A DNA stretch of 64,000 bases from an uncultured Bacteriovoracaceae bacterium (lineage in GTDB: Bacteria > Bdellovibrionota > UBA2394). Under the pieces are notes generated by a model. The model was not told where the DNA came from. It saw only the letters and a program-made list of their open reading frames with translations, and did no database searches. Both the position numbers and the translations under genes were made by a program. The stretch spans positions 25,188 to 89,187 of the forward strand of contig CAZRCG010000010.1 in NCBI GenBank assembly GCA_964598565.1, written 5' to 3'. Shown here piece after piece: positions 3,191-36,363 of this stretch. Numbering within the stretch: the stretch's first letter is position 1; the number at the start of each line of letters is the position of its first letter.

Positions 3191-4165
3191 TCACCAGCCG
3201 AGAACGTAGGCGAAAATCAGAGGTGCGACAATGCTTGCATCCGACTCAATCACAAACTTAGGCGTCGCAACCCCGAGCTTACCCCACGTGATTTTCTCAT
3301 TGGGCACAGCTCCTGAATAAGATCCGTAGCTTGTGGTGGAATCCGAAATTTGACAAAAATACGACCACAAGGGAATGGAGCGCTCCTGCAAATCTTGACT
3401 GATCATAGGCACCACGCAAATGGGAAAGTCTCCGGCAATACCCCCTCCAATTTGAAAAAATCCGATACGAGTATTCGCCGATGTCTTTCGGTACCAATCG
3501 GCAAGCTTAATCATATAGTGAATGCCGCTTTTTATCGTGGTCACATGTTTGATTTCGCCTGTAATGCAGTGGCTGGCGAAAATATTACCTAGGGTAGAGT
3601 CTTCCCATCCGGGAACAAATAGAGGGAGGTTTTTCTCAGCAGCCGCCAGGAGCCATGAGTTCTTAGGATCAATTTGATACGAATCTTTCAAAACGCCACT
3701 CAATAAAATTTGGTAAATAAATTCGTGGGGCAGGTAGCTCTTTGCTTCATGGTCGGCCTTCTTCCATTCTTTCAACACAAATTGTTCGATGCGACGAATG
3801 GCTTCTTCTTCGGGAATGCAGGTATCTGTGACTCGATTGAGATGTCTCTCTAAAAGCTTTTCTTCATCGCTCGAGGTTAAATCTCGGTAATTAGGAATTC
3901 TCACGTAGTGTTCATGCGCCACCAAATTGAAGACGTCTTCTTCAAGATTGGCACCTGTACATGTGATAGCATGAACTTTTCCCTGTCGAATCATTTCAGC
4001 GAGGGAAATGCCTAGCTCCGCCGTACTCATAGCACCCGCCATCGTGACGAACATTTGGCCGCCAGAATCAACTAAGCTCTTGTAGGCCTCTGCTGCATCC
4101 ACCAGCGTAGCCGCGTTGAAATGTCGAAAATGGGTGGTGATGAAATCGCTAATAGGTTTGGCCAT
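3191..4165 (-). CDS. Deoxyhypusine synthase-like protein (DHS / homospermidine synthase-like family)
   Basis: Contains MFVTMAGAMSTAELG and AITCTGANLEEDVFN, which are DHS-like motifs. Start chosen at MAKPISDF (codon at 4165..4163). The longer 393-aa ORF would overlap the divergent HDOD gene. Confidence 0.7.
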   Translation of the reverse strand: MAKPISDFITTHFRHFNAATLVDAAEAYKSLVDSGGQMFVTMAGAMSTAELGISLAEMIRQGKVHAITCTGANLEEDVFNLVAHEHYVRIPNYRDLTSSDEEKLLERHLNRVTDTCIPEEEAIRRIEQFVLKEWKKADHEAKSYLPHEFIYQILLSGVLKDSYQIDPKNSWLLAAAEKNLPLFVPGWEDSTLGNIFASHCITGEIKHVTTIKSGIHYMIKLADWYRKTSANTRIGFFQIGGGIAGDFPICVVPMISQDLQERSIPLWSYFCQISDSTTSYGSYSGAVPNEKITWGKLGVATPKFVIESDASIVAPLIFAYVLGW

Positions 4166-5197: not shown

Positions 5198-7477
5198 ATG
5201 ACGAGCGCATCCAGCCCCGATACCACAGCAGATCTTGTTCAAAAGACTTTCGAGAAACTTCAAAAGAATATCCCCGTGCTGCGAAAGCGATTGAACCGAG
5301 CACTGACCCTTTCGGAGAAACTCTTATTGGGGCATTTAGAAGATCCCGAAAATCAAGCTCTATCGCGAGGAGAGGCCACGCTTCGTCTCCGACCCGATCG
5401 AGTGGCGATGCAAGATGCCACGGCTCAGATGGCCATTCTTCAGTTCATGCAGTCGGGCATAGAACGCGTTCTGGTGCCATCGAGTGTTCACTGTGATCAT
5501 CTGATACAAGCGCATAAGGGCTCCTCAGCGGACACTGCAACAGCCGTAACAACCAATAAAGAAGTTTACGATTTTTTGGCATCGGCTTCGAGTAAGTATG
5601 GCATTGGATTTTGGGGTCCAGGGGCCGGAATTATTCATCAGGTCGTTCTTGAAAAATATGGTTTTCCTGGAGCGCTCATTATTGGAACCGACTCCCATAC
5701 CCCGAACGGCGGAGGTCTAGGCATGTTGGCGATTGGCGTCGGAGGGGCTGACGCTTCTGAGACAATGGCAGGCCTACCTTGGGAAGTTTTGCATCCCAAG
5801 GTTATTGGAATAAAACTTACGGGCAAATTAAATGGATGGACCTCGCCGAAGGATATCATTCTGAAGGTCTGTGAACTATTGACCGTGAAAGGCGGTACCA
5901 ACGCGATTGTGGAATATTTTGGGCCGGGGGCCGAAAGTATTTCGTGCACTGGCAAAGGGACGATCTGCAATATGGGCGCCGAACATGGTGCAACGACCAG
6001 CGTATTTCCGTTTGATGCCTCGATGGATCGTTATCTGAGAGCTACCGAGCGCGCCGCCATTGCAGACCTTGCGGCTCGTTACAGCGACTTGCTGAAGAAT
6101 GATCCCGATGTCGATCAAAATCCTGAGGCGTACTACGACAAGGTATTAGAAATTGATTTAAGTTCCTTAGAGCCCCATATTTGCGGGCCTCATACGCCTG
6201 ACTTAGCGCGGCCCATTTCGAAAATGAAAGATGATGTGCAGAGCCATAAATACCCCGACGATCTCAAGGCTGGCCTCATTGGGAGTTGTACCAATTCGTC
6301 GTATGAAGATATCGAACGAGTGATGCATGTGGCTCGACAAGCCTTAGCGGCTGGCATTAAGTCGTCGGTTCCGTTGCTCATCACGCCGGGTTCTGAGCAG
6401 GTTTTCGAAACCATTAAACGAGACGGCTTTATGTCGGTATTTGAAGAGATCGGCGCGACCGTTTTGGCGAATGCCTGTGGGCCTTGTATTGGCCAATGGA
6501 AGCGCGACGATATTGCCAAGGGAGAGACCAATTCAATTATCTCATCTTACAATCGAAATTTTCCGGCGCGTAACGATGGCAATGCTCAAACGCTCTCGTT
6601 CATTGCAAGCCCTGAGGTCGTGATGGCGCTGAGCCTAGCGGGCAAACTTTCGTTTAATCCGCTGACCGATGAACTGAACACTCAGGGTAAGTCGTTAAAG
6701 TTAGAGGGCCCTTCGGCGGCTCATGATATTCCTACCAAAGGCTTTGCCATTTCCTGGAAGGGCTACCAGGCCCCATCAGCATCGGGTGCAGGCGTATCTG
6801 TTGTGATTGATCCGAAGAGTGATCGCTTGGCTTTGTTACCACCTTTTGAAGCTTGGAATGGTAAGGACTTTGTGGAGCTTCCTATTTTGCTCAAAGCGCT
6901 CGGAAAATGTACCACCGATCATATTTCACCCGCCGGCCCCTGGCTTCGCTTTCGAGGCCATCTCGACCGAATTAGCGACAATATGTTTTTAGGGGCGGTG
7001 AATGCCTTTACCAAAGAGGTCGGCAAGGGAACCAACGTGGTCGGTGGAGACAAGGGTCAGCCGTTTTCAGTTACGGCACGCGATTACAAATCGAGGGGAA
7101 TTCGTTGGGCTGTCATTGGAGATGAGAATTATGGGGAAGGTAGTTCTCGGGAGCATGCTGCGATGGAACCTCGATATCTAGGATGTGCCTTTGTCATTGC
7201 TCGCAGTTTTGCTCGCATTCATGAAACCAATCTTAAGAAACAGGGGCTCCTGCCACTGATGTTTGAGGACCCTCAGTTTTATACTCAGATTGAGGAATTC
7301 GACCGAATTTCGTTGTCGGGGTTGGCTTCGCTGGCTCCCAAGTCGCTCGTTCAAGCGCAGCTCAAGAAACCTGATGGGAAGGTAGTGGATTTTAAGCTTA
7401 AGCACTCGATGACTGCCGAGCAAGTTCGTTGGTTTCAGGCGGGTTCTGCTCTGAATGCGGCTCGAGTGACGCTGTAA
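5198..7477 (+). CDS. acnA: Aconitate hydratase, mitochondrial-type (AcnA)
   Basis: 759 aa. The N-terminus KLQKNIPVLRKRLNRALTLSEK and the motifs SVHCDHLIQA, GTDSHTPNGGG and NACGPCIG are typical of mitochondrial-type aconitase. Confidence 0.9.
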   Translation: MTSASSPDTTADLVQKTFEKLQKNIPVLRKRLNRALTLSEKLLLGHLEDPENQALSRGEATLRLRPDRVAMQDATAQMAILQFMQSGIERVLVPSSVHCDHLIQAHKGSSADTATAVTTNKEVYDFLASASSKYGIGFWGPGAGIIHQVVLEKYGFPGALIIGTDSHTPNGGGLGMLAIGVGGADASETMAGLPWEVLHPKVIGIKLTGKLNGWTSPKDIILKVCELLTVKGGTNAIVEYFGPGAESISCTGKGTICNMGAEHGATTSVFPFDASMDRYLRATERAAIADLAARYSDLLKNDPDVDQNPEAYYDKVLEIDLSSLEPHICGPHTPDLARPISKMKDDVQSHKYPDDLKAGLIGSCTNSSYEDIERVMHVARQALAAGIKSSVPLLITPGSEQVFETIKRDGFMSVFEEIGATVLANACGPCIGQWKRDDIAKGETNSIISSYNRNFPARNDGNAQTLSFIASPEVVMALSLAGKLSFNPLTDELNTQGKSLKLEGPSAAHDIPTKGFAISWKGYQAPSASGAGVSVVIDPKSDRLALLPPFEAWNGKDFVELPILLKALGKCTTDHISPAGPWLRFRGHLDRISDNMFLGAVNAFTKEVGKGTNVVGGDKGQPFSVTARDYKSRGIRWAVIGDENYGEGSSREHAAMEPRYLGCAFVIARSFARIHETNLKKQGLLPLMFEDPQFYTQIEEFDRISLSGLASLAPKSLVQAQLKKPDGKVVDFKLKHSMTAEQVRWFQAGSALNAARVTL

Positions 7478-8983: not shown

Positions 8984-10243
8984 TTAGCGCTCTTGGTGTA
9001 GAACGCGTTTGGCGTAGCTGCTCTCGATCTCCTTTCGCAGGTTGCCGTCATGGTCATAGACCTGCCAGAGTTTCTCAATCGATTTTTTTAAATGGCTTGC
9101 GAGTGGATTTTTGAGCACGTCCAGACGGTAGAGTCGTTCAGTAACGTAGAGAGATGTGAGAAGGTCAGCGACCAGCTCTGTATCTTGTAGGCCATGTTTG
9201 GCATTGTGGAGGGCCAGTTGAATGTCAATTACGAAGTTACTGAGAAAGGGAATATCATCGCGAGCATCTAATTCTTGCCAATTGATGACGCCATTTTTTT
9301 TCTCGAAAAGATTGTAGAGAGAGGCAATCTCGGCAGGTTTTAAGCGGCCTCCTTGGCCTTTCGAAAAACTGGTTCGGTCTACTTCAGCTAAAAACCAGCT
9401 CACCTCTTTCTTTAGAAGACCCGAAAAGGCCTGGCTAAAAGTTCCCACAAAAAATCCGATGATTGCGGTATGGCCTAGATATTTTAAACTGCGAAGGGCT
9501 ATCCCAGGCCATCGCCTTTTCACTCTATGAAAGCGGCCTCGGCGAGCGGAGCTTTCGGTAGGGTGCCAATTTTGATCGACGATCTCAACTACATCATCAA
9601 TGCGAACTTCGGCATAGCCATTTGCTATCCTTTCCTTCAGCAGAGCGGATTTCTCGTCAGCCGAGGCGTTTGGCCGACTTCGATCGATTTGCTTGGTTAG
9701 GCGTCGAATGAATCGTTCGTGTCTTCCAAACGCTGGTCCAAAACTGGAGGGAAGATAGTACTGATTTTCAGGGTCGGCCTCAGATCCTTCGGCGGAGCTC
9801 GGGTCTAAGCCCATTATTGATTCAGCAAAGCCAATTTCAACTCGCTCTAGAGCGGCGTCTCGTTCTTCAGCCGTCATCTTGCCTATGCGATAGATGAGAT
9901 GAATATAGCGGACCACTCGCTGGTGCGCTTTTCGCACATCCGCGACTGAGGGCTTAGGAAACACGGGAAGGATAGGACCTCCATCCTTCATCTTGGGTTC
10001 CACTTTAGGTGGCAAAAGATGGGGGGCATAGAGGGGCTGATCACCCGCTTCGGGGAGCGGATTTTTTCGCGATAGAGGAGAAATGATAAAATCTGCCGTA
10101 CCAGAAGCCATCGATCGAATCACTGAGGAGAGTCGACTCAGCGCGCCACGGCATGGGGTGGGACCTTGATGAGCTTGGAGAGATTGAGACAGAATGAACG
10201 AAAACCCAAAAATCAAGAAAGTGGACGTAAGGCGTAATTTCAA
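8984..10243 (-). CDS. Hypothetical secreted protein
   Basis: 419 aa with an N-terminal signal peptide (MKLRLTSTFLIFGFSFILSQSLQA). No recognisable domain. Confidence 0.55.
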   Translation of the reverse strand: MKLRLTSTFLIFGFSFILSQSLQAHQGPTPCRGALSRLSSVIRSMASGTADFIISPLSRKNPLPEAGDQPLYAPHLLPPKVEPKMKDGGPILPVFPKPSVADVRKAHQRVVRYIHLIYRIGKMTAEERDAALERVEIGFAESIMGLDPSSAEGSEADPENQYYLPSSFGPAFGRHERFIRRLTKQIDRSRPNASADEKSALLKERIANGYAEVRIDDVVEIVDQNWHPTESSARRGRFHRVKRRWPGIALRSLKYLGHTAIIGFFVGTFSQAFSGLLKKEVSWFLAEVDRTSFSKGQGGRLKPAEIASLYNLFEKKNGVINWQELDARDDIPFLSNFVIDIQLALHNAKHGLQDTELVADLLTSLYVTERLYRLDVLKNPLASHLKKSIEKLWQVYDHDGNLRKEIESSYAKRVLHQER

Positions 10244-30404: not shown

Positions 30405-31457
30405 ATGAACACTTTGATGCGCAAAACACGAAACCTAGAGTCTGCAAATATTGCAGAGATAAGTCGGCAGGGTGATATAAATCGTACCAAGTCGAGGGTC
30501 TTACTGTCGGAACTTCAGCACTTTCATTGGAGCGGTACCGTGGAGCTGAGATCGGGTGAACGTCTCAAACGTCTTCATCTGGTGAAGGGCAGGGTGGTTC
30601 GAATTCAGTCCAATCTCTCCTCAGAACTCTATGGATCTATTTTAGAGACTCATCTCGCTGTACCCCGAGCCGATCTTGACGAAGCCCTTCGTCTTCAGCG
30701 TGAACTCTTTCCCAATATGAAAGTTGGGGATATTCTGAAAAATCATCTGTCAGAACGTCGACCTAAGTTGACTGAGCTACTCTCTGACGAGGGTTTGAAG
30801 CTTGCCGAGCGTCTGCAGTTTGTGAATAGCTTGATTCAGGCGCTTACCTGGGTGAGCGGATCATTTCTTTTAAATCCCGCCAAAGCAAAAGAAGCGGGTG
30901 ATTCGGCCCTATGTTCCATCGATATTTCGGAGGCCTTAAATGACTTGCTCGATTTTCAGACTCGAGAGTCGTTGGCCGTTTTTTCATCTCTCCCTCTATG
31001 GCCTGAGCAGGTGGGACAGGTCGCACTGAGCCGCTATGCCTTGTGGAATATCTTGGCGAGCCTTCGAACTCGATCGCTTAGTGGAGTGTTATTGATTCGA
31101 AAAGATCAGAAACTCTACGAGATTGTTGTGAAGCAGGGTTTGCCTATGATTCTGTATGAAGGGACCTTTGCGAAACCTAGACAATCGATTGTTGTGCGGC
31201 ACGCTGGGCAAGACCACGAAGAGTTTTTTCAAGATCAAATATTTCACCTTTTAAGTTTTACGACGGGATCAGCCTACTTTCGTTCGTTCGATAGTTCATC
31301 CGGTGGTGGTGCGGTGGTGCCGGCTTCCATGGAGATCGTCGAATCCACGGCCATTTTACCTGAGGCCGAACTGAGTATTGACGAAGTATCAAGCGTACAA
31401 GGGCTTGTGCCCCAGTGGCGAAAGAATCTTCTTCGATTATTCTCCTGGCGACGTTAA
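30405..31457 (+). CDS. Hypothetical protein, possibly with an N-terminal DUF4388-like domain
   Basis: 350 aa. An N-terminal GDI..sr..LsELq....sGtvel..g...k.l.l.~G.vv pattern. No catalytic motifs seen. Confidence 0.4.
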   Translation: MNTLMRKTRNLESANIAEISRQGDINRTKSRVLLSELQHFHWSGTVELRSGERLKRLHLVKGRVVRIQSNLSSELYGSILETHLAVPRADLDEALRLQRELFPNMKVGDILKNHLSERRPKLTELLSDEGLKLAERLQFVNSLIQALTWVSGSFLLNPAKAKEAGDSALCSIDISEALNDLLDFQTRESLAVFSSLPLWPEQVGQVALSRYALWNILASLRTRSLSGVLLIRKDQKLYEIVVKQGLPMILYEGTFAKPRQSIVVRHAGQDHEEFFQDQIFHLLSFTTGSAYFRSFDSSSGGGAVVPASMEIVESTAILPEAELSIDEVSSVQGLVPQWRKNLLRLFSWRR

Positions 31458-32411
31458 ACCTTTATGCTTTGAGCGGTAGGGTGCAGCCATAAAACGAGCA
31501 TTGGCTTTCATATAGTCTCTCAATTTTTCCAAGACTCGAGCTTCAATCTGTCGTACTCGCTCTCTGGTGATGGAATAGGTCTCGCCAATTTCTTGAAGCG
31601 TTTTTGGGCTTTCCGCTCTCAAACGTTCTCGAAATATGAGCAGTTCTTTACCTGCCAACGAGCGTTCAAAAGTATTCAGTCGTTCAATGAACTCGCCGCG
31701 AATTTCTCGATCAGCGAGAGCATCATCGATATCTTGCGAGGGATCTCGCAAGATCTGGAGTAGGGAATTTCCTTCAGAAGAGTCGCTTTGCAGGGGGGAA
31801 TTTAATGAGACATCTCGTCCTGACAAGCGCTGGGACATCTCGACGACTTCTCTTTCTTTGACCTGAAGTCGGTCAGCCAGCAACTTGGGTTCTGGGCTCA
31901 ATCCTTGCGCCTCAAGTCGATTTTTCTCTTTCTGAAGTCGATAAAATAATGAGCGCTGCGCTTTGGTGGTGCCTACCTTAACGAGCGAGAAATTTTTCAG
32001 AACGAAGGCCCGTATATAAGCCTTGATCCAATAGCTGGCGTACGACGAAAGTTTGGCACCTTTCTCAGGATCAAATTCTTTAACCGCTTGAAGCAAGCCG
32101 ACATTGCCCTCTTGAATAAGATCGAGAAGATGAATGCCAGTTCGAGAATATTCGTAAGCAATTTTTACAACGAGCCTAAGATTGGCCAGTATGAGAATTT
32201 TGGCTTTCTGAGGGTCGTGATCAACGAGGTACCCTTCGGCGATCTCGCGCTCTTTTTCAGGGCTGAGCAGGGGATAGTCTTTGATGCTTTGAAGGTAGAG
32301 CTGAAGGGCTTCTGTTTTAGACGGAACGATGGCGCTAGGCGCTAAAGGCACTGGAAAAGCAGAGTCGGCCTTCGATGTTTCCGTGCTGACTTTCTTCGAC
32401 CGCGGCGCCAT
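31437..32411 (-). CDS. rpoH: RNA polymerase sigma-32 factor RpoH
   Basis: DLIQEGNVGLLQAVKEFDPEKGAKLSSYASYWIKAYIRAFVLKNFSLVKVGTTKAQRSLFYRLQKEK is near-collinear with the E. coli RpoH region 2 plus the RpoH box (QRKLFFNLR). About 25-aa N-terminal extension. Confidence 0.85.
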   Translation of the reverse strand: MAPRSKKVSTETSKADSAFPVPLAPSAIVPSKTEALQLYLQSIKDYPLLSPEKEREIAEGYLVDHDPQKAKILILANLRLVVKIAYEYSRTGIHLLDLIQEGNVGLLQAVKEFDPEKGAKLSSYASYWIKAYIRAFVLKNFSLVKVGTTKAQRSLFYRLQKEKNRLEAQGLSPEPKLLADRLQVKEREVVEMSQRLSGRDVSLNSPLQSDSSEGNSLLQILRDPSQDIDDALADREIRGEFIERLNTFERSLAGKELLIFRERLRAESPKTLQEIGETYSITRERVRQIEARVLEKLRDYMKANARFMAAPYRSKHKGLTSPGE

Positions 32412-32420
32412 GATAAAAAC

Positions 32421-33110
32421 CTACCTTGCAGCAGCCTGCTGAGCAAGATATCGGCTTATCGATTGTTCTCTCTCGGCTGGCGATGGCCAGGTGGCGAGAA
32501 GCGACGGCCCTAGCATGGACAATCCAGCCCACCACGAGCCGCCTATTCTGTTCTGTGTCGTTTCCTTAAGTCGCTCAATAACGGTTTGCCACGCTGCAGC
32601 ATCCCCGAGTGCTAATACCGTCTCGCGGTCACTTGCTCGAATCTGTGGTTTAAAAAAAAGCCGTTCGAGGGGGGAGGAATAAAAATCGACAAAGCCCAGC
32701 CACAACAAAAGAGCCTCCTGCTCGCGAGTGGTCAAACCCTGCCAAACATAAGAGCACGCGTAAACATAAAAGTTCTTGCCTCGTCTTAATCCAACAATAT
32801 CGGCTCCCGTAGAATTGGCACCCGTTCTGTCGCTGCCGACCATGGCTCCTACAGTGCTCGCATCAGTCCTAACGCTGCCGCCCATCGTGGCACCCATAGC
32901 ATTAGCATCCTTCCTGCTGCTGCCGCCCATCGTGGCCGATGTATTCTTAAAAAAATAGAGATTCACATGGTATCGAAATCGGGCCTCGAATCGAAGGCTC
33001 GCCTCACCGGCCGAAGAGGTCGCGCCTTCAGAGCGCAGCTGAAGTAATAAAATGATGATCGAGGGCGCAAACCAAAGTGCCGCGAGCAGCGCTACTATGA
33101 GCCAAAGCAT
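32421..33110 (-). CDS. Hypothetical membrane-anchored protein with internal 14-15-aa repeats, co-transcribed upstream of rpoH
   Basis: N-terminal TM MLWLIVALLAALWFAPSIIILLL. Repeats ATMGGSSRKDANAMG / ATMGGSVRTDASTVG / AMVGSDRTGANSTG. Its stop lies 9 nt before the rpoH start. Confidence 0.55.
   Translation of the reverse strand: MLWLIVALLAALWFAPSIIILLLQLRSEGATSSAGEASLRFEARFRYHVNLYFFKNTSATMGGSSRKDANAMGATMGGSVRTDASTVGAMVGSDRTGANSTGADIVGLRRGKNFYVYACSYVWQGLTTREQEALLLWLGFVDFYSSPLERLFFKPQIRASDRETVLALGDAAAWQTVIERLKETTQNRIGGSWWAGLSMLGPSLLATWPSPAEREQSISRYLAQQAAAR
32820..32940. repeat. Imperfect tandem repeat, about 42-nt period, inside the CDS 32421-33110
   Basis: CGCTGCCGCCCATCGTGGC is repeated at 32871-32889 and 32913-32931. 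Related flanking copies encode the peptide repeats. Confidence 0.5.
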
Positions 33111-33184
33111 AAGCGTATCTTTGATGGCTTTTCGTTAAATGGCAAGACTTGGGGTATCTTTCACGGGAGGTGGACCACCCCAGC

Positions 33185-34213
33185 TTAGAGCGTAACGTAG
33201 ATCTCTATTTTTTTTGGGCCGTAAAACTGAATCGCCATCAAGCGATTGTGTTCAGAACACAGCACCCTCATATTATCTGTATCGGTTTTGCCCCCTGCCG
33301 CCAACGGCTTGCAATGTTCAAACTCCAACCTGAAGCGACTCTCACATCGACGATGGCTCAGCCGATCTTTATATTCACATCGACCTCCCGCTCGTTCCCA
33401 CACAGTATGTCGAATCGCCTTTGGTATATAGCGGGATTGGGATTGAATCTGGGATTGGGGCTGAGAGAGAGCTACTTGCTGAGAGGTTGAAGCACGCCCT
33501 ATCTGGGACGGGGGTGCCTCTTGATTGCCGGCGTAAGTTTCGCCCGTCGTGACTGCGGCCGGAAAAGGTGAATTTTGAGGAAATGGCTCTCTGGATGCCT
33601 TATAACTGACCTCATCTTCAGATTTACGTTTCACCGTATTCTTGTCTTTGGCCTCCTTAAGCAAGCGCTTTACTCCCGCTTCAAAAACCTCCGACAGGGC
33701 GATAGATTTTATGGCCCTTAGCTCATCCAATAAATCACTGACCTCTTTCGATACTACAAACTTTAGTTCTCGAAGTTCAGCGGATAGGAGTCTCTCTTTA
33801 TCTTTAGGTTTCTCAACAGGCTGTTCACTCTGCGCCACCAAAACCACTTCCACTTCTCGTTTCGATTTATGCTTACACTGAGCAATGAGCTTGCTGGTTT
33901 TCTCTGATTGCCATTTGGTTGGGCTGACTTTTGATTCTTGATAAAGAAAGCGATTGATCTGAGCTGCCGTAGTCATCGAAAGCTCACCCTCTTCGATATG
34001 TTTTTTTACTTCAGGCGCTTTCTTAAGGAGGCGCATGGCGTGAATGCGTTCTGAGGCTTGCGACTCACTATAGTGGAGTTCTTTGACCACAAACTCCCAC
34101 AGTGAACTGTAAGCTCTCACGCTGTAGAGCCTTCTTGATTCCACTTCGGCCTGGTTCTTATATACGTTGACATCGTAGAGGTGTGTTAGAAGCGAAGCGT
34201 CGAAGCATCTCAT
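33185..34213 (-). CDS. HNH endonuclease with an N-terminal DUF222-like domain (13E12-repeat-type HNH protein)
   Basis: C-terminal RHTVWERAGGRCEY...HRRCESRFRLEFEHCKPLAAGGKTDTDNMRVLCSEHNR is a classic HNH motif. The N-terminus SLWEFVVKELHYSESQASERIHAMRLL resembles DUF222. Start uncertain (M34213, or upstream to 34285). Confidence 0.65.
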   Translation of the reverse strand: MRCFDASLLTHLYDVNVYKNQAEVESRRLYSVRAYSSLWEFVVKELHYSESQASERIHAMRLLKKAPEVKKHIEEGELSMTTAAQINRFLYQESKVSPTKWQSEKTSKLIAQCKHKSKREVEVVLVAQSEQPVEKPKDKERLLSAELRELKFVVSKEVSDLLDELRAIKSIALSEVFEAGVKRLLKEAKDKNTVKRKSEDEVSYKASREPFPQNSPFPAAVTTGETYAGNQEAPPSQIGRASTSQQVALSQPQSQIQSQSRYIPKAIRHTVWERAGGRCEYKDRLSHRRCESRFRLEFEHCKPLAAGGKTDTDNMRVLCSEHNRLMAIQFYGPKKIEIYVTL

Positions 34214-34390
34214 TGCGGTAGCCCTCGCTCGCAGTATTGCGGCGCAATATCTCATTTTCATCAGCCCTCGTCCTGAGCATCTCACTACAGCCGCCCGCGC
34301 CCTCCGAATAATCTCATTCCTTCTTCAGCCTCTCTCGTGTCTGAATTGTTACCAAACGGTTCACGAACAATCTCATTCCTTCTTCGGCCT
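34204..34390. repeat. Cluster of degenerate direct repeats (core AATCTCATTCCTTCTTC(A/G)GCC, sub-core ATCTCAT) in the 5' region of the HNH gene
   Basis: Near-identical 24-mers at 34307-34330 and 34367-34390. Weaker copies at 34246-34262 and 34204-34214. Spacing is about 60 nt. Confidence 0.45.
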
Positions 34391-34861
34391 GACTCGCTCT
34401 CGTTCGAGCATCTCGTATAAGGCCTGGCATTCTTCTCGCCATAGGCTGGCCCTCCAACGGTGAGTAAAGAGCTCAGCCCAATGCGGATTCTCACTGAGAG
34501 GATTCTCAAGAATATCAGCCTCTAGAAGATTGAGACGCTCGACTAGAAGGGCCTGCAAGCTATTATCGGTCGTTGATGGAGTCAGATTCTTTCTGCAGTA
34601 TGAAATTAGGCGAAGACAGCGTTCGTCATCGAGTCGTTCATTCCATTCAAAGAGTTCATCCCAGTCGTACCAGTGATAGTTGCGTTTGGCGTTCTCTGCA
34701 AGATCAGGCGAAGGCTCTTGCCTGGTGGTGATTTGAAACTCCAGAAGGCGGCGCTGTCTTGAGTCTTGGTAGCGGCAATCAAAGTCGGTTCGAATGGCCG
34801 TCGCTACCAATTCGAGCCGTTCCAAAAAAAATGATGGAATGAATGAGAGGGCCAGTTCCAT
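34373..34861 (-). CDS. Hypothetical protein coupled to the AAA ATPase
   Basis: 162 aa starting 5 nt after the AAA gene stop. W/E-rich (WYDWDELFEWNERLDDE). No known domain recognised. Confidence 0.5.
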   Translation of the reverse strand: MELALSFIPSFFLERLELVATAIRTDFDCRYQDSRQRRLLEFQITTRQEPSPDLAENAKRNYHWYDWDELFEWNERLDDERCLRLISYCRKNLTPSTTDNSLQALLVERLNLLEADILENPLSENPHWAELFTHRWRASLWREECQALYEMLERERVRPKKE

Positions 34862-34866
34862 GGTGT

Positions 34867-36363
34867 TTAGGTCCGCGACGCCTTAACCGCGCGGGTATCG
34901 GCCCAACGCTTAATCTCTTTGATTTGCTCTGCCATCGTCGTCGCTAAAGGCACCATGCGCCCAGCAGCTTTAAAAAGATCTTCCATCGCGAGAGGGCGCT
35001 TATTATCTTTGTAAGCGAGTACGAGTCCAGACACGACCACCTGTTCACACTCGGCTCCGTTGAAGTTGTTCGTGGCCTTTGAAAGCTCCACCAAATTGAA
35101 CTTCGAAGTGTCGAGGTCTCTCTTCTTAAGATGAACACTAAAAATCTGCTGTCGCTCTTTCTCAGAAGGAAGATCAACAAAAAAGATTTCGTCGAAGCGC
35201 CCTTTTCTTAGAAGCTCGGGCGGCAGACGATTAATTTCGTTGGCCGTGGCCGCCACGAAGACAGGCGTGGTATGCTCTTGCAGCCACGTAAGAAACGAGG
35301 AAAAGATACGCGCTGTTACGCCTTTGTCGCCTTGATCATATCCGGCGACTCCCTTTTCAATTTCTTCCAACCAAAGAATGGCGGGTGATACCGCTTCAAT
35401 TTGTTGGATGGCCCTACGAAAACTCTCTTCAGGAGTTCCAAGAACGCCACCATACAATCGATTCATATCAAGCTTGTAGAGAGGTAGGTCCCATGACGCC
35501 GCAATGGCTTGGGTGCAAAGGCTTTTTCCGCAACCGCTAATCCCCGTCATGAGAATACCTTTTGGCATTCTAAGACCTGCCGCTTGAGCTTCTTTTGAAA
35601 AAAAGTCTGATCGATCGCGAAGCCAATCTTTGAGGTTCTCGAGCCCTCCGATATCTTCCAGATCATACTTCGTCGGAACAAATTCTAAAACGCCATCGCG
35701 GCGAATAATGCGAGATTTCTCTTCAAAGATCGTCAACAGCGCGTCGCTCGTCAGTTCGCTCTTGCCGACGAGCATCTTTTGAAAAATGAGCTTGGCTTCA
35801 TCGAGTGTTAGGCCCAAGGCGCCCTTCAGCAATTTCATACGCTGTTCTTCGTTTAGCTGCACCTTCAACTTAGGCAGCGATTTAAGTACGCTTTCAAAAA
35901 TCGTTTGTAAATCACTCTCATCTGGCAGAGAAAACTCCACCGTAATCAGTTCCTTCATCAAGTCGTCTGGAATTTCGGCTCTTGGTGAAATAAGAAAGAG
36001 GGTTTTGAATTTATTCTTATTGAGTTGAAAGACATCACGAATCAAGCGCTTGAGCAGAGACATGGGTGCTAGAGACCATGAAAAATCTTTCACCACAAAG
36101 AGCTGGGGTGTTGGGTCGTTGAGAAATTTTTCGAGAGCTTCTTCAAGAGGTACTTTTTTTCCGTCTCCAAACCCTCTCGTTTGTGACCAAACAGAAAATC
36201 CTACCGGTTGACTGAAGCCCGACTGCGATAGTTTCTTAAGAGCTTGTTCGACGCGCTCTTCTTCCCAGCTTTCAATCCAGACGAGGGGATACTTCGAGGC
36301 CACGAGCCGCTTGATTTCGTCATAGCTATTTCTTCGGAACGATTTTAGTTCGAGCTTCGCCAT
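34867..36363 (-). CDS. Classic-clade AAA+ ATPase with an about 250-aa N-terminal domain (Ycf46-like family)
   Basis: Walker A GISGCGKS, Walker B ILWLEEIEK, and second region of homology ATANEINRLPPELLRKGRFDEIFFVDLP. Confidence 0.8.
   Translation of the reverse strand: MAKLELKSFRRNSYDEIKRLVASKYPLVWIESWEEERVEQALKKLSQSGFSQPVGFSVWSQTRGFGDGKKVPLEEALEKFLNDPTPQLFVVKDFSWSLAPMSLLKRLIRDVFQLNKNKFKTLFLISPRAEIPDDLMKELITVEFSLPDESDLQTIFESVLKSLPKLKVQLNEEQRMKLLKGALGLTLDEAKLIFQKMLVGKSELTSDALLTIFEEKSRIIRRDGVLEFVPTKYDLEDIGGLENLKDWLRDRSDFFSKEAQAAGLRMPKGILMTGISGCGKSLCTQAIAASWDLPLYKLDMNRLYGGVLGTPEESFRRAIQQIEAVSPAILWLEEIEKGVAGYDQGDKGVTARIFSSFLTWLQEHTTPVFVAATANEINRLPPELLRKGRFDEIFFVDLPSEKERQQIFSVHLKKRDLDTSKFNLVELSKATNNFNGAECEQVVVSGLVLAYKDNKRPLAMEDLFKAAGRMVPLATTMAEQIKEIKRWADTRAVKASRT

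Follow-up and report, generated by a model that had tools for sequence, protein, structure and literature searches.

The window, by which we mean the whole 64-kb stretch of DNA analysed here, contains a single gene of an HNH nuclease family, located on the minus strand at 33185-34213. Its reading frame is uninterrupted and ends with a TAA stop codon at 33185-33187, while three candidate start codons are available, namely ATG 34213, ATG 34255 and GTG 34285. Initiation at ATG 34213 yields a product of 342 aa, which is identical to the protein P0001 of an NCBI-derived collection, and initiation at GTG 34285 yields 366 aa. The open reading frame proposed in the first-pass annotation of this DNA is thus real, both peptides quoted there (SLWEFVVKELHYSE and ERIHAMRLL) are found in its product, and the statement that there is one copy of the gene holds for the 64-kb window.

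The gene lies in a compact array. In the order of transcription this array comprises a PilZ gene on the opposite strand, a Ser/Thr kinase gene, a rhomboid protease gene, the gene of an AAA+ ATPase of the Ycf46/SpoVK type (34867-36363, minus strand), orf162 (34373-34861, minus strand), the HNH gene, hyp229 (32421-33110, minus strand) and the gene of an RpoH-like sigma factor at 31437-32411 (NF005143, 277 bits with a cutoff of 241). Beyond the sigma gene follow a convergent DUF4388/PatA_N gene and then the malate dehydrogenase gene. The minus-strand rpoH-like gene and the plus-strand DUF4388/PatA_N gene overlap by 21 nt at their 3' ends (31437-31457), and the spacing in relatives is similarly tight or overlapping. 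ORF and domain calls therefore bore out the earlier description of an HNH gene located between an AAA-ATPase module and an rpoH-like gene in a tight array on the same strand.

Both direct neighbours of the HNH gene belong to this array. Upstream, orf162, which belongs to no Pfam family, adjoins the ATPase gene in every orthologous array. Downstream, hyp229 precedes the rpoH-like sigma gene and was aligned with its orthologs by multiple alignment and tblastn; a hydrophobic stretch at its N-terminus lines up with theirs, and conservation in the C-terminal half is strong enough for detection by tblastn. At 32780-32945 hyp229 carries a window-specific insertion of about 44 aa, which consists of three repeats of about 15 aa each (TMGGSSRKDANAMGA / TMGGSVRTDASTVGA / MVGSDRTGANSTGA) and is missing in six orthologs. 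The GC content of hyp229 (0.536) is the highest of the local genes. A scan of 32300-35000 with Rfam revealed nothing meaningful, and promoter and terminator matches were no more numerous than in shuffled sequence.

The C-terminal part of the protein (33185-33436, minus strand) is an HNH nuclease domain of the beta-beta-alpha-metal type which has a Cys3-His zinc site and ends in a short helix, as supported by Pfam and PHROG matches, invariant alignment columns and fold matches of a homolog model. The Pfam HNH model (PF01844) gave 21.5 bits, which is barely above its gathering cutoff of 21.4, and HNH families of PHROG matched down to an E value of 1.6e-7. Moreover, the residues C303, C314, H324, N338, C343, H346 and N347, all of which are invariant across 17 homologs, are kept in the window protein; they include the three cysteines and the histidine that serve as zinc ligands as well as the catalytic His and Asn residues. 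The canonical HNH nuclease recognized earlier at the C-terminus was hence confirmed. The domain is preceded by a low-complexity linker (33437-33601, minus strand) which is predicted to be disordered and varies in length across the family according to the alignment. Within this linker a GGGATT hexanucleotide microsatellite of 4.5 units (33433-33459, encoding QSQIQSQS) forms a tract of potentially variable length.

Upstream of the linker, the retained part of a helical N-terminal domain is encoded at 33602-34150 on the minus strand; profile matches, alignment and a structure model describe it as DUF222-like with a ParB-HTH-like stretch. The ParB-HTH match is faint (E 0.019). DUF222 (PF02720) reached 16.9 bits on the window protein (E 0.004), which is below the cutoff of 24.4, and this match spans aa 55-146 against positions 32-124 of the 306 model positions. 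Similar matches at E<=0.05 occurred in six of 17 family members, where the N-terminal ~120 residues always aligned with model positions ~10-125, and one distant member, P0228, cleared the cutoff with 25.7 bits. As judged from these profile comparisons, the N-domain of the window protein is remotely related to the first third of DUF222 and is not a bona fide member of the Pfam family. The DUF222 assignment made earlier thus stood in so far as a weak similarity recurs at the level of the family, and fell short in that the window protein scores below the cutoff and matches the first third of the model only. Accordingly, the suggested search against both families was positive for HNH and stayed below the threshold for DUF222.

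An AlphaFold2 model of P0002, the closest full-length relative, had a pLDDT of 80.9 and showed three parts: an all-helical N-domain with a small beta-hairpin (residues 31-239), a disordered linker (243-308; pLDDT <50) and the HNH domain (317-401). Foldseek searches of PDB and BFVD and profile searches of PDB sequences matched the HNH part alone, with EcoKMcrA, ScoMcrA, the Gme HNH nickase and phage HNH proteins among the structures found. Neither Foldseek against PDB and BFVD nor the profile search of PDB sequences returned a solved relative of the N-domain.

We compared the locus with seven orthologous arrays (L017/L018; L019, GCA_017302715.1; L021; L022, GCA_964601045.1; L023, GCA_964622975.1; L024, GCA_964611175.1; and L026). 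The order rhomboid protease, AAA ATPase, orf16x, hyp18x, sigma factor and PatA_N gene was found in all seven, as were the PilZ and kinase genes upstream, and mdh lies downstream in each of them except L024, where the contig ends just past the PatA_N gene. In six of the seven (L019, L021, L022, L023, L024 and L026) orf16x is directly followed by hyp18x, and wherever both genes were called they overlap or lie no more than 13 nt apart. For L026, the closest ortholog with 77% identity in the ATPase, the tblastn matches are placed such that an additional gene would not fit in between. In the remaining array, which represents a related metagenomic lineage, this slot is taken by an unrelated gene of 317 aa that shows a weak signature of class-I SAM methyltransferases (L017:9997-10950, L018:10009-10950). 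None of the seven arrays contains the HNH gene. Since six sites are empty, with abutting or overlapping flanking genes, and one is occupied by an unrelated gene, we interpret the segment at 33111-34372 (minus strand, ~1.26 kb) as an insertion. Comparison of the arrays thus shows one HNH copy that was inserted between orf162 and hyp229 in a conserved core array running from PilZ through kinase, rhomboid protease, ATPase, orf16x, hyp18x and rpoH to mdh. It looks as if the slot between orf16x and hyp18x is a recurrent insertion point which has been used at least twice. These empty sites, together with the mildly atypical codon usage described below, agree with the earlier suggestion of a horizontally acquired insertion.

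With regard to base composition, the comparison with the flanks that had been suggested gave a divided answer. Of 40 long ORFs the HNH gene has the third least host-like codon usage, with a value about 2 SD lower than the mean, which weakly supports a foreign origin. On the other hand, its GC (0.473) and GC3 (0.478) are the same as those of the flanks, which points either to an old insertion or to a donor of similar composition.

The 5' end of the gene differs from that of its relatives. All relatives open with a conserved helix of the consensus LSxxELLxxTxxxxxxEKxATLxLLxxLxEV, whereas the family homology of the window protein starts abruptly at AEVESRRLY (nt 34150), and the family profile aligns P0001 at positions 28-304 only. 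The first ~27 profile positions, corresponding to ~55 residues in the closest relatives, are replaced by a non-family head of the frame (34151-34285, minus strand) which contains the starts ATG 34213, ATG 34255 and GTG 34285. A low-stringency tblastn search detected no frameshifted relic of the missing N-terminus upstream in any frame, and the native upstream region of the family is absent as well. Instead, a ~30-nt core that stems from the 3' end of orf162 (GGCYGAAGAAGGAATGAGAT...) is present four times as direct, degenerate repeats, which make up the 200 nt leading from orf162 to the family-homologous part (34197-34396, minus strand). Tandem Repeats Finder missed these degenerate repeats, which were established by motif counts: four of the five AATGAGAT octamers of the window fall within 171 nt at this junction, and a junction 21-mer occurs twice with 0.01 occurrences expected. 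Furthermore, a 10-nt match (CAGGCCGAAG) joins the end of orf162 to the exact start point of the family homology. The window copy is therefore devoid of the family's upstream region and of the ~27-55 initial codons, and its 5' end consists of tandem duplicates of the orf162 stop/start junction.

These duplicates form a chain of overlapping stop and start codons. The TGA stop codon of orf162 overlaps ATG 34376, which opens a mini-ORF of 20 codons; the TGA of this mini-ORF overlaps ATG 34317 of a second one of 10 codons, whose TAG in turn overlaps GTG 34285 of the 366-aa HNH frame. The in-frame codons ATG 34255 and ATG 34213 derive from later repeat copies. We infer that the junction arose by microhomology-mediated repair after a break and that the resulting chain now provides translational coupling. 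An independent Logan assembly, L025 (SRR15237806_46223), is 100% identical to window positions 44363-33357 and thereby covers the 5' junction, which is therefore not an artefact of binning or assembly. The L025 contig stops inside the HNH-coding part; this could reflect further copies of the gene, which would break the assembly graph, or low coverage.

An HNH gene with this embedding could also be an ancestral member of the array with a housekeeping role tied to rpoH that was repeatedly lost in relatives. Its GC and GC3, being the same as those of the flanks, its operon-like position and the possible translational coupling fit such a history. Nevertheless, we consider it improbable, because the gene is missing from all seven other arrays including the closest one, the flanking genes abut or overlap in the empty sites and leave no scar, family members elsewhere occupy unrelated contexts, and the junction carries duplicated flank sequence as is typical of rearrangement. 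We therefore regard the HNH gene as a dispensable gene inserted into the conserved surroundings of a heat-shock sigma gene.

The position downstream of the ATPase gene had led to the proposal of a domesticated, Septu-like nuclease partner. We considered this reading for two-gene systems of the PtuA/PtuB as well as of the Iet kind, in which the HNH protein would act as the nuclease effector and would have been taken into the operon. Like PtuA and PtuB in Septu, the ATPase and HNH genes lie on one strand within 1.5 kb in a tight array. The ATPase also resembles IetA models, a similarity that is generic in both cases (68 bits in PADLOC; 57 bits for IteA of NCBIfam, cutoff 510). However, the ATPase belongs to PF00004 and hence to another class than PtuA, which is of the ABC/AAA_15/21 type, and PADLOC gave no match to PtuA or PtuB. 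In addition, the orthologous arrays keep the ATPase (72-77% identity) and lack the HNH gene. ATPase homologs are numerous (7,865 at E<=1e-60; 65-77% identity for the orthologs), and a metagenome scan with the ATPase retrieved one further close ortholog (L026) besides 79 loci with paralogs or homologs of ~40% identity. None of these 80 AAA-homolog loci contains the HNH gene, and conversely none of 16 other HNH-family loci has any of the window neighbours, including the ATPase, nearby. The lack of co-occurrence together with the PADLOC and NCBIfam results led us to reject the partner reading in both of its forms: Septu for the reasons just given, and Iet (IetA ATPase plus IetS protease) on account of the IteA score, the lack of an adjacent S8 protease and the position of the ATPase as a syntenic core gene. 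The HNH protein itself had no significant PADLOC match either (best E 0.0012 over 25 residues), so the suggested search with a defence-finding tool returned nothing beyond the generic IetA similarity. These comparisons point to no functional link between the HNH gene and the ATPase, and a two-gene system of this kind has hardly any probability left. The ATPase is rather a core gene of the array, and genes of a rhomboid protease and a Ser/Thr kinase adjoin it in all relatives. It matches the phage family phrog_8638 over its full length (E 2e-125), yet it is a syntenic core gene. For the window, removing the false lead of an ATPase and HNH defence pair has little further consequence.

More can be learned from the family to which the HNH gene belongs. 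A word-indexed search found 34 relatives of the window protein. The closest one is 73% identical over the retained length of the window protein, two relatives with 64-65% identity, which are encoded on the same 415-kb contig, share 88% identity between them, and the others range from 27 to 42%. A scan of a genome collection with an alignment of six sequences as the query returned distant relatives only (26-48% identity). With a family-profile HMM we obtained 7,408 cluster representatives at E<=1e-30, spread across phyla; among the best 150 of them nearly all are 290-450 aa long, and the matches of most span almost the entire profile. The architecture of helical N-domain, linker and HNH domain is therefore very common. 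The named hosts of the relatives are Bdellovibrio, Bdellovibrionota, Oligoflexia and Bacteriovoracaceae MAGs as well as one Spirochaetia and one Krumholzibacteriia MAG, which contradicts the label "actinobacterial-type" that had been attached to the gene.

Several genomes contain more than one member. Four genomes have two to three copies each; three genomes harbour three copies or fragments each (L001/L003/L011, L005/L010/L016 and L008/L009/L013), and P0003 and P0004 are two family copies of one genome. Within a genome the DNA similarity of the copies amounts to 74-93% and is confined to the ORF and 150-280 bp upstream of it, ending at the stop codon. Decayed copies are found as well, one with an internal deletion (L010) and three in the form of fragments (L011, L016 and L013:6856-7199). 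The analogy with the mycobacterial 13E12 family that had been drawn earlier thus holds for behaviour, as the relatives are multi-copy repeats of a single gene. In one Bdellovibrionales MAG, two of three copies (L008:8502-9434 and L013:8537-9460) have an alpha/beta-hydrolase gene on the opposite strand ~420-500 nt upstream, and L013 holds the additional partial copy at 6856-7199; the shared neighbour and the extra copy hint at segmental duplication alongside the spread of single genes. Three family genes from different MAGs carry the palindrome CCATACA-N3-TGTATGG 10-25 nt upstream of the start codon (L002:~9950-9975, L004:~9950-9975 and, slightly degenerate, L006:~3520-3545). The palindrome may be an operator or a site of autoregulation; the truncated copy in the window lacks it.

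The genomic context of the family is unspecific. At ten inspected family loci the neighbours are unrelated ordinary or housekeeping genes, which encode an FGE-sulfatase-like enzyme, a deaminase, a methyltransferase, FliD, a formamidase, a LysR regulator, alpha/beta hydrolases, a sigma-54 activator, BioY and a thioesterase; no integrase, transposase, defence gene or prophage was seen beside them. No family members were found on viral contigs.

These contexts also bear on the reading of the HNH protein as a stand-alone defence nuclease of the McrA or type IV restriction kind, whose N-domain would recognize foreign or modified DNA to be cut by the HNH domain and which would have been acquired horizontally into the variable slot. 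The McrA enzymes share the domain order, with an N-terminal DNA-binding and a C-terminal HNH domain, and provide the nearest solved folds: EcoKMcrA (6ghc), ScoMcrA (5zmm) and the Gme HNH nickase were the best PDB matches of the HNH part with probabilities of 0.87-0.97, albeit at weak E values of 0.1-0.4 (0.1 for the McrA fold match), and the equally weak profile match to McrA reached ~1e-3. A patchy distribution with presence or absence at the orf16x/hyp18x slot would suit a defence gene, too. By contrast, the N-domain is unrelated to that of the McrA enzymes and matched no solved structure in fold or profile searches, modified-DNA readers included, and PADLOC reported no significant hit. The ten loci have housekeeping neighbours and no defence-island context, a restriction gene would not usually be present as several paralogs, some of them decayed, in one genome, and the putative DNA-binding domain of the window copy is incomplete. 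Taken together, a defence nuclease of this kind seems unlikely.

The explanation that we favour, with a probability of roughly 60%, is a stand-alone HNH gene of a selfish type, REP13E12-like or homing-type, which inserted into the conserved array and was truncated at its 5' end afterwards. According to this model the N-domain would bind a specific DNA site where the HNH domain nicks or cuts, after which repair would spread the gene, together with the short stretch upstream of it, to further sites or to other genomes. Since we identified neither a cleavage site nor a target-site duplication, terminal repeats or a co-conversion tract, this mobility mechanism of site-specific cleavage and repair-mediated copying is an inference. 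In the window copy, the native promoter region and a portion of the putative DNA-binding domain are gone, and any remaining expression would rely on operon read-through and translational coupling. Most probably this copy is a relic in decay whose catalytic domain is still intact. The gene could still be functional, given an uninterrupted ORF of 342 codons and 73% identity to the closest relative, and the intact catalytic domain makes a residual activity possible.

A more far-reaching view, which we put forward as doubtful, is that DUF222-like HNH single-gene units are widespread, so far unrecognized autonomous mobile elements of one gene in Bdellovibrionota and neighbouring phyla and as such a counterpart of REP13E12. 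If this were true, the window copy would record an insertion followed by a break repair that tandemly duplicated the stop/start junction of the host. The repair would have coupled a truncated nuclease translationally into the operon of AAA ATPase, orf162 and rpoH, possibly as a first step of domestication. Independent of this view, the pair of a filled and a clean empty site could serve to test homing by these nucleases.

Among the closest known systems, two remain to be compared with the window gene. Free-standing homing endonuclease genes such as mobE of phage T4, an HNH gene (PMC2790892, PMC2988022), likewise are stand-alone ORFs located between conserved genes and present or absent in otherwise collinear genomes. 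The window gene shows the same pattern, with six empty sites and one that holds a different gene, and the unit of its family also comprises the gene and its own short upstream region. In contrast to the phage genes, the family is bacterial-chromosomal with no member found on viral contigs, and its N-domain is unrelated to the DNA-binding modules known from homing endonucleases.

The second comparison concerns REP13E12, described for mycobacteria as multi-copy single-gene repeats of ~1-1.4 kb (PMC10589994, citing Gordon et al. 1999), and the DUF222-HNH fusions (PF02720 plus PF01844) that have been noted in an earlier study (PMC3592412). The window gene resembles them in its helical N-domain followed by a C-terminal HNH domain, in the weak but consistent similarity to the first ~125 positions of DUF222, and in relatives that occur in multiple copies per genome as single-gene repeats of ~1-1.4 kb. 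It differs from them in that the N-domain of its family has ~200 aa instead of ~300 aa and scores below the Pfam cutoff in the window protein, in that the hosts are Bdellovibrionota- and Oligoflexia-type MAGs and not Actinobacteria, and in that the window copy is single in 64 kb and truncated at its 5' end. The DUF222-like/HNH architecture, best known from Mycobacterium, hence has a very large, multi-copy and patchily distributed relative outside Actinobacteria. The window gene is a further member of this known and very common kind of gene, and what sets it apart, besides the clean contrast of filled and empty sites, is its unusual rebuilt 5' junction.
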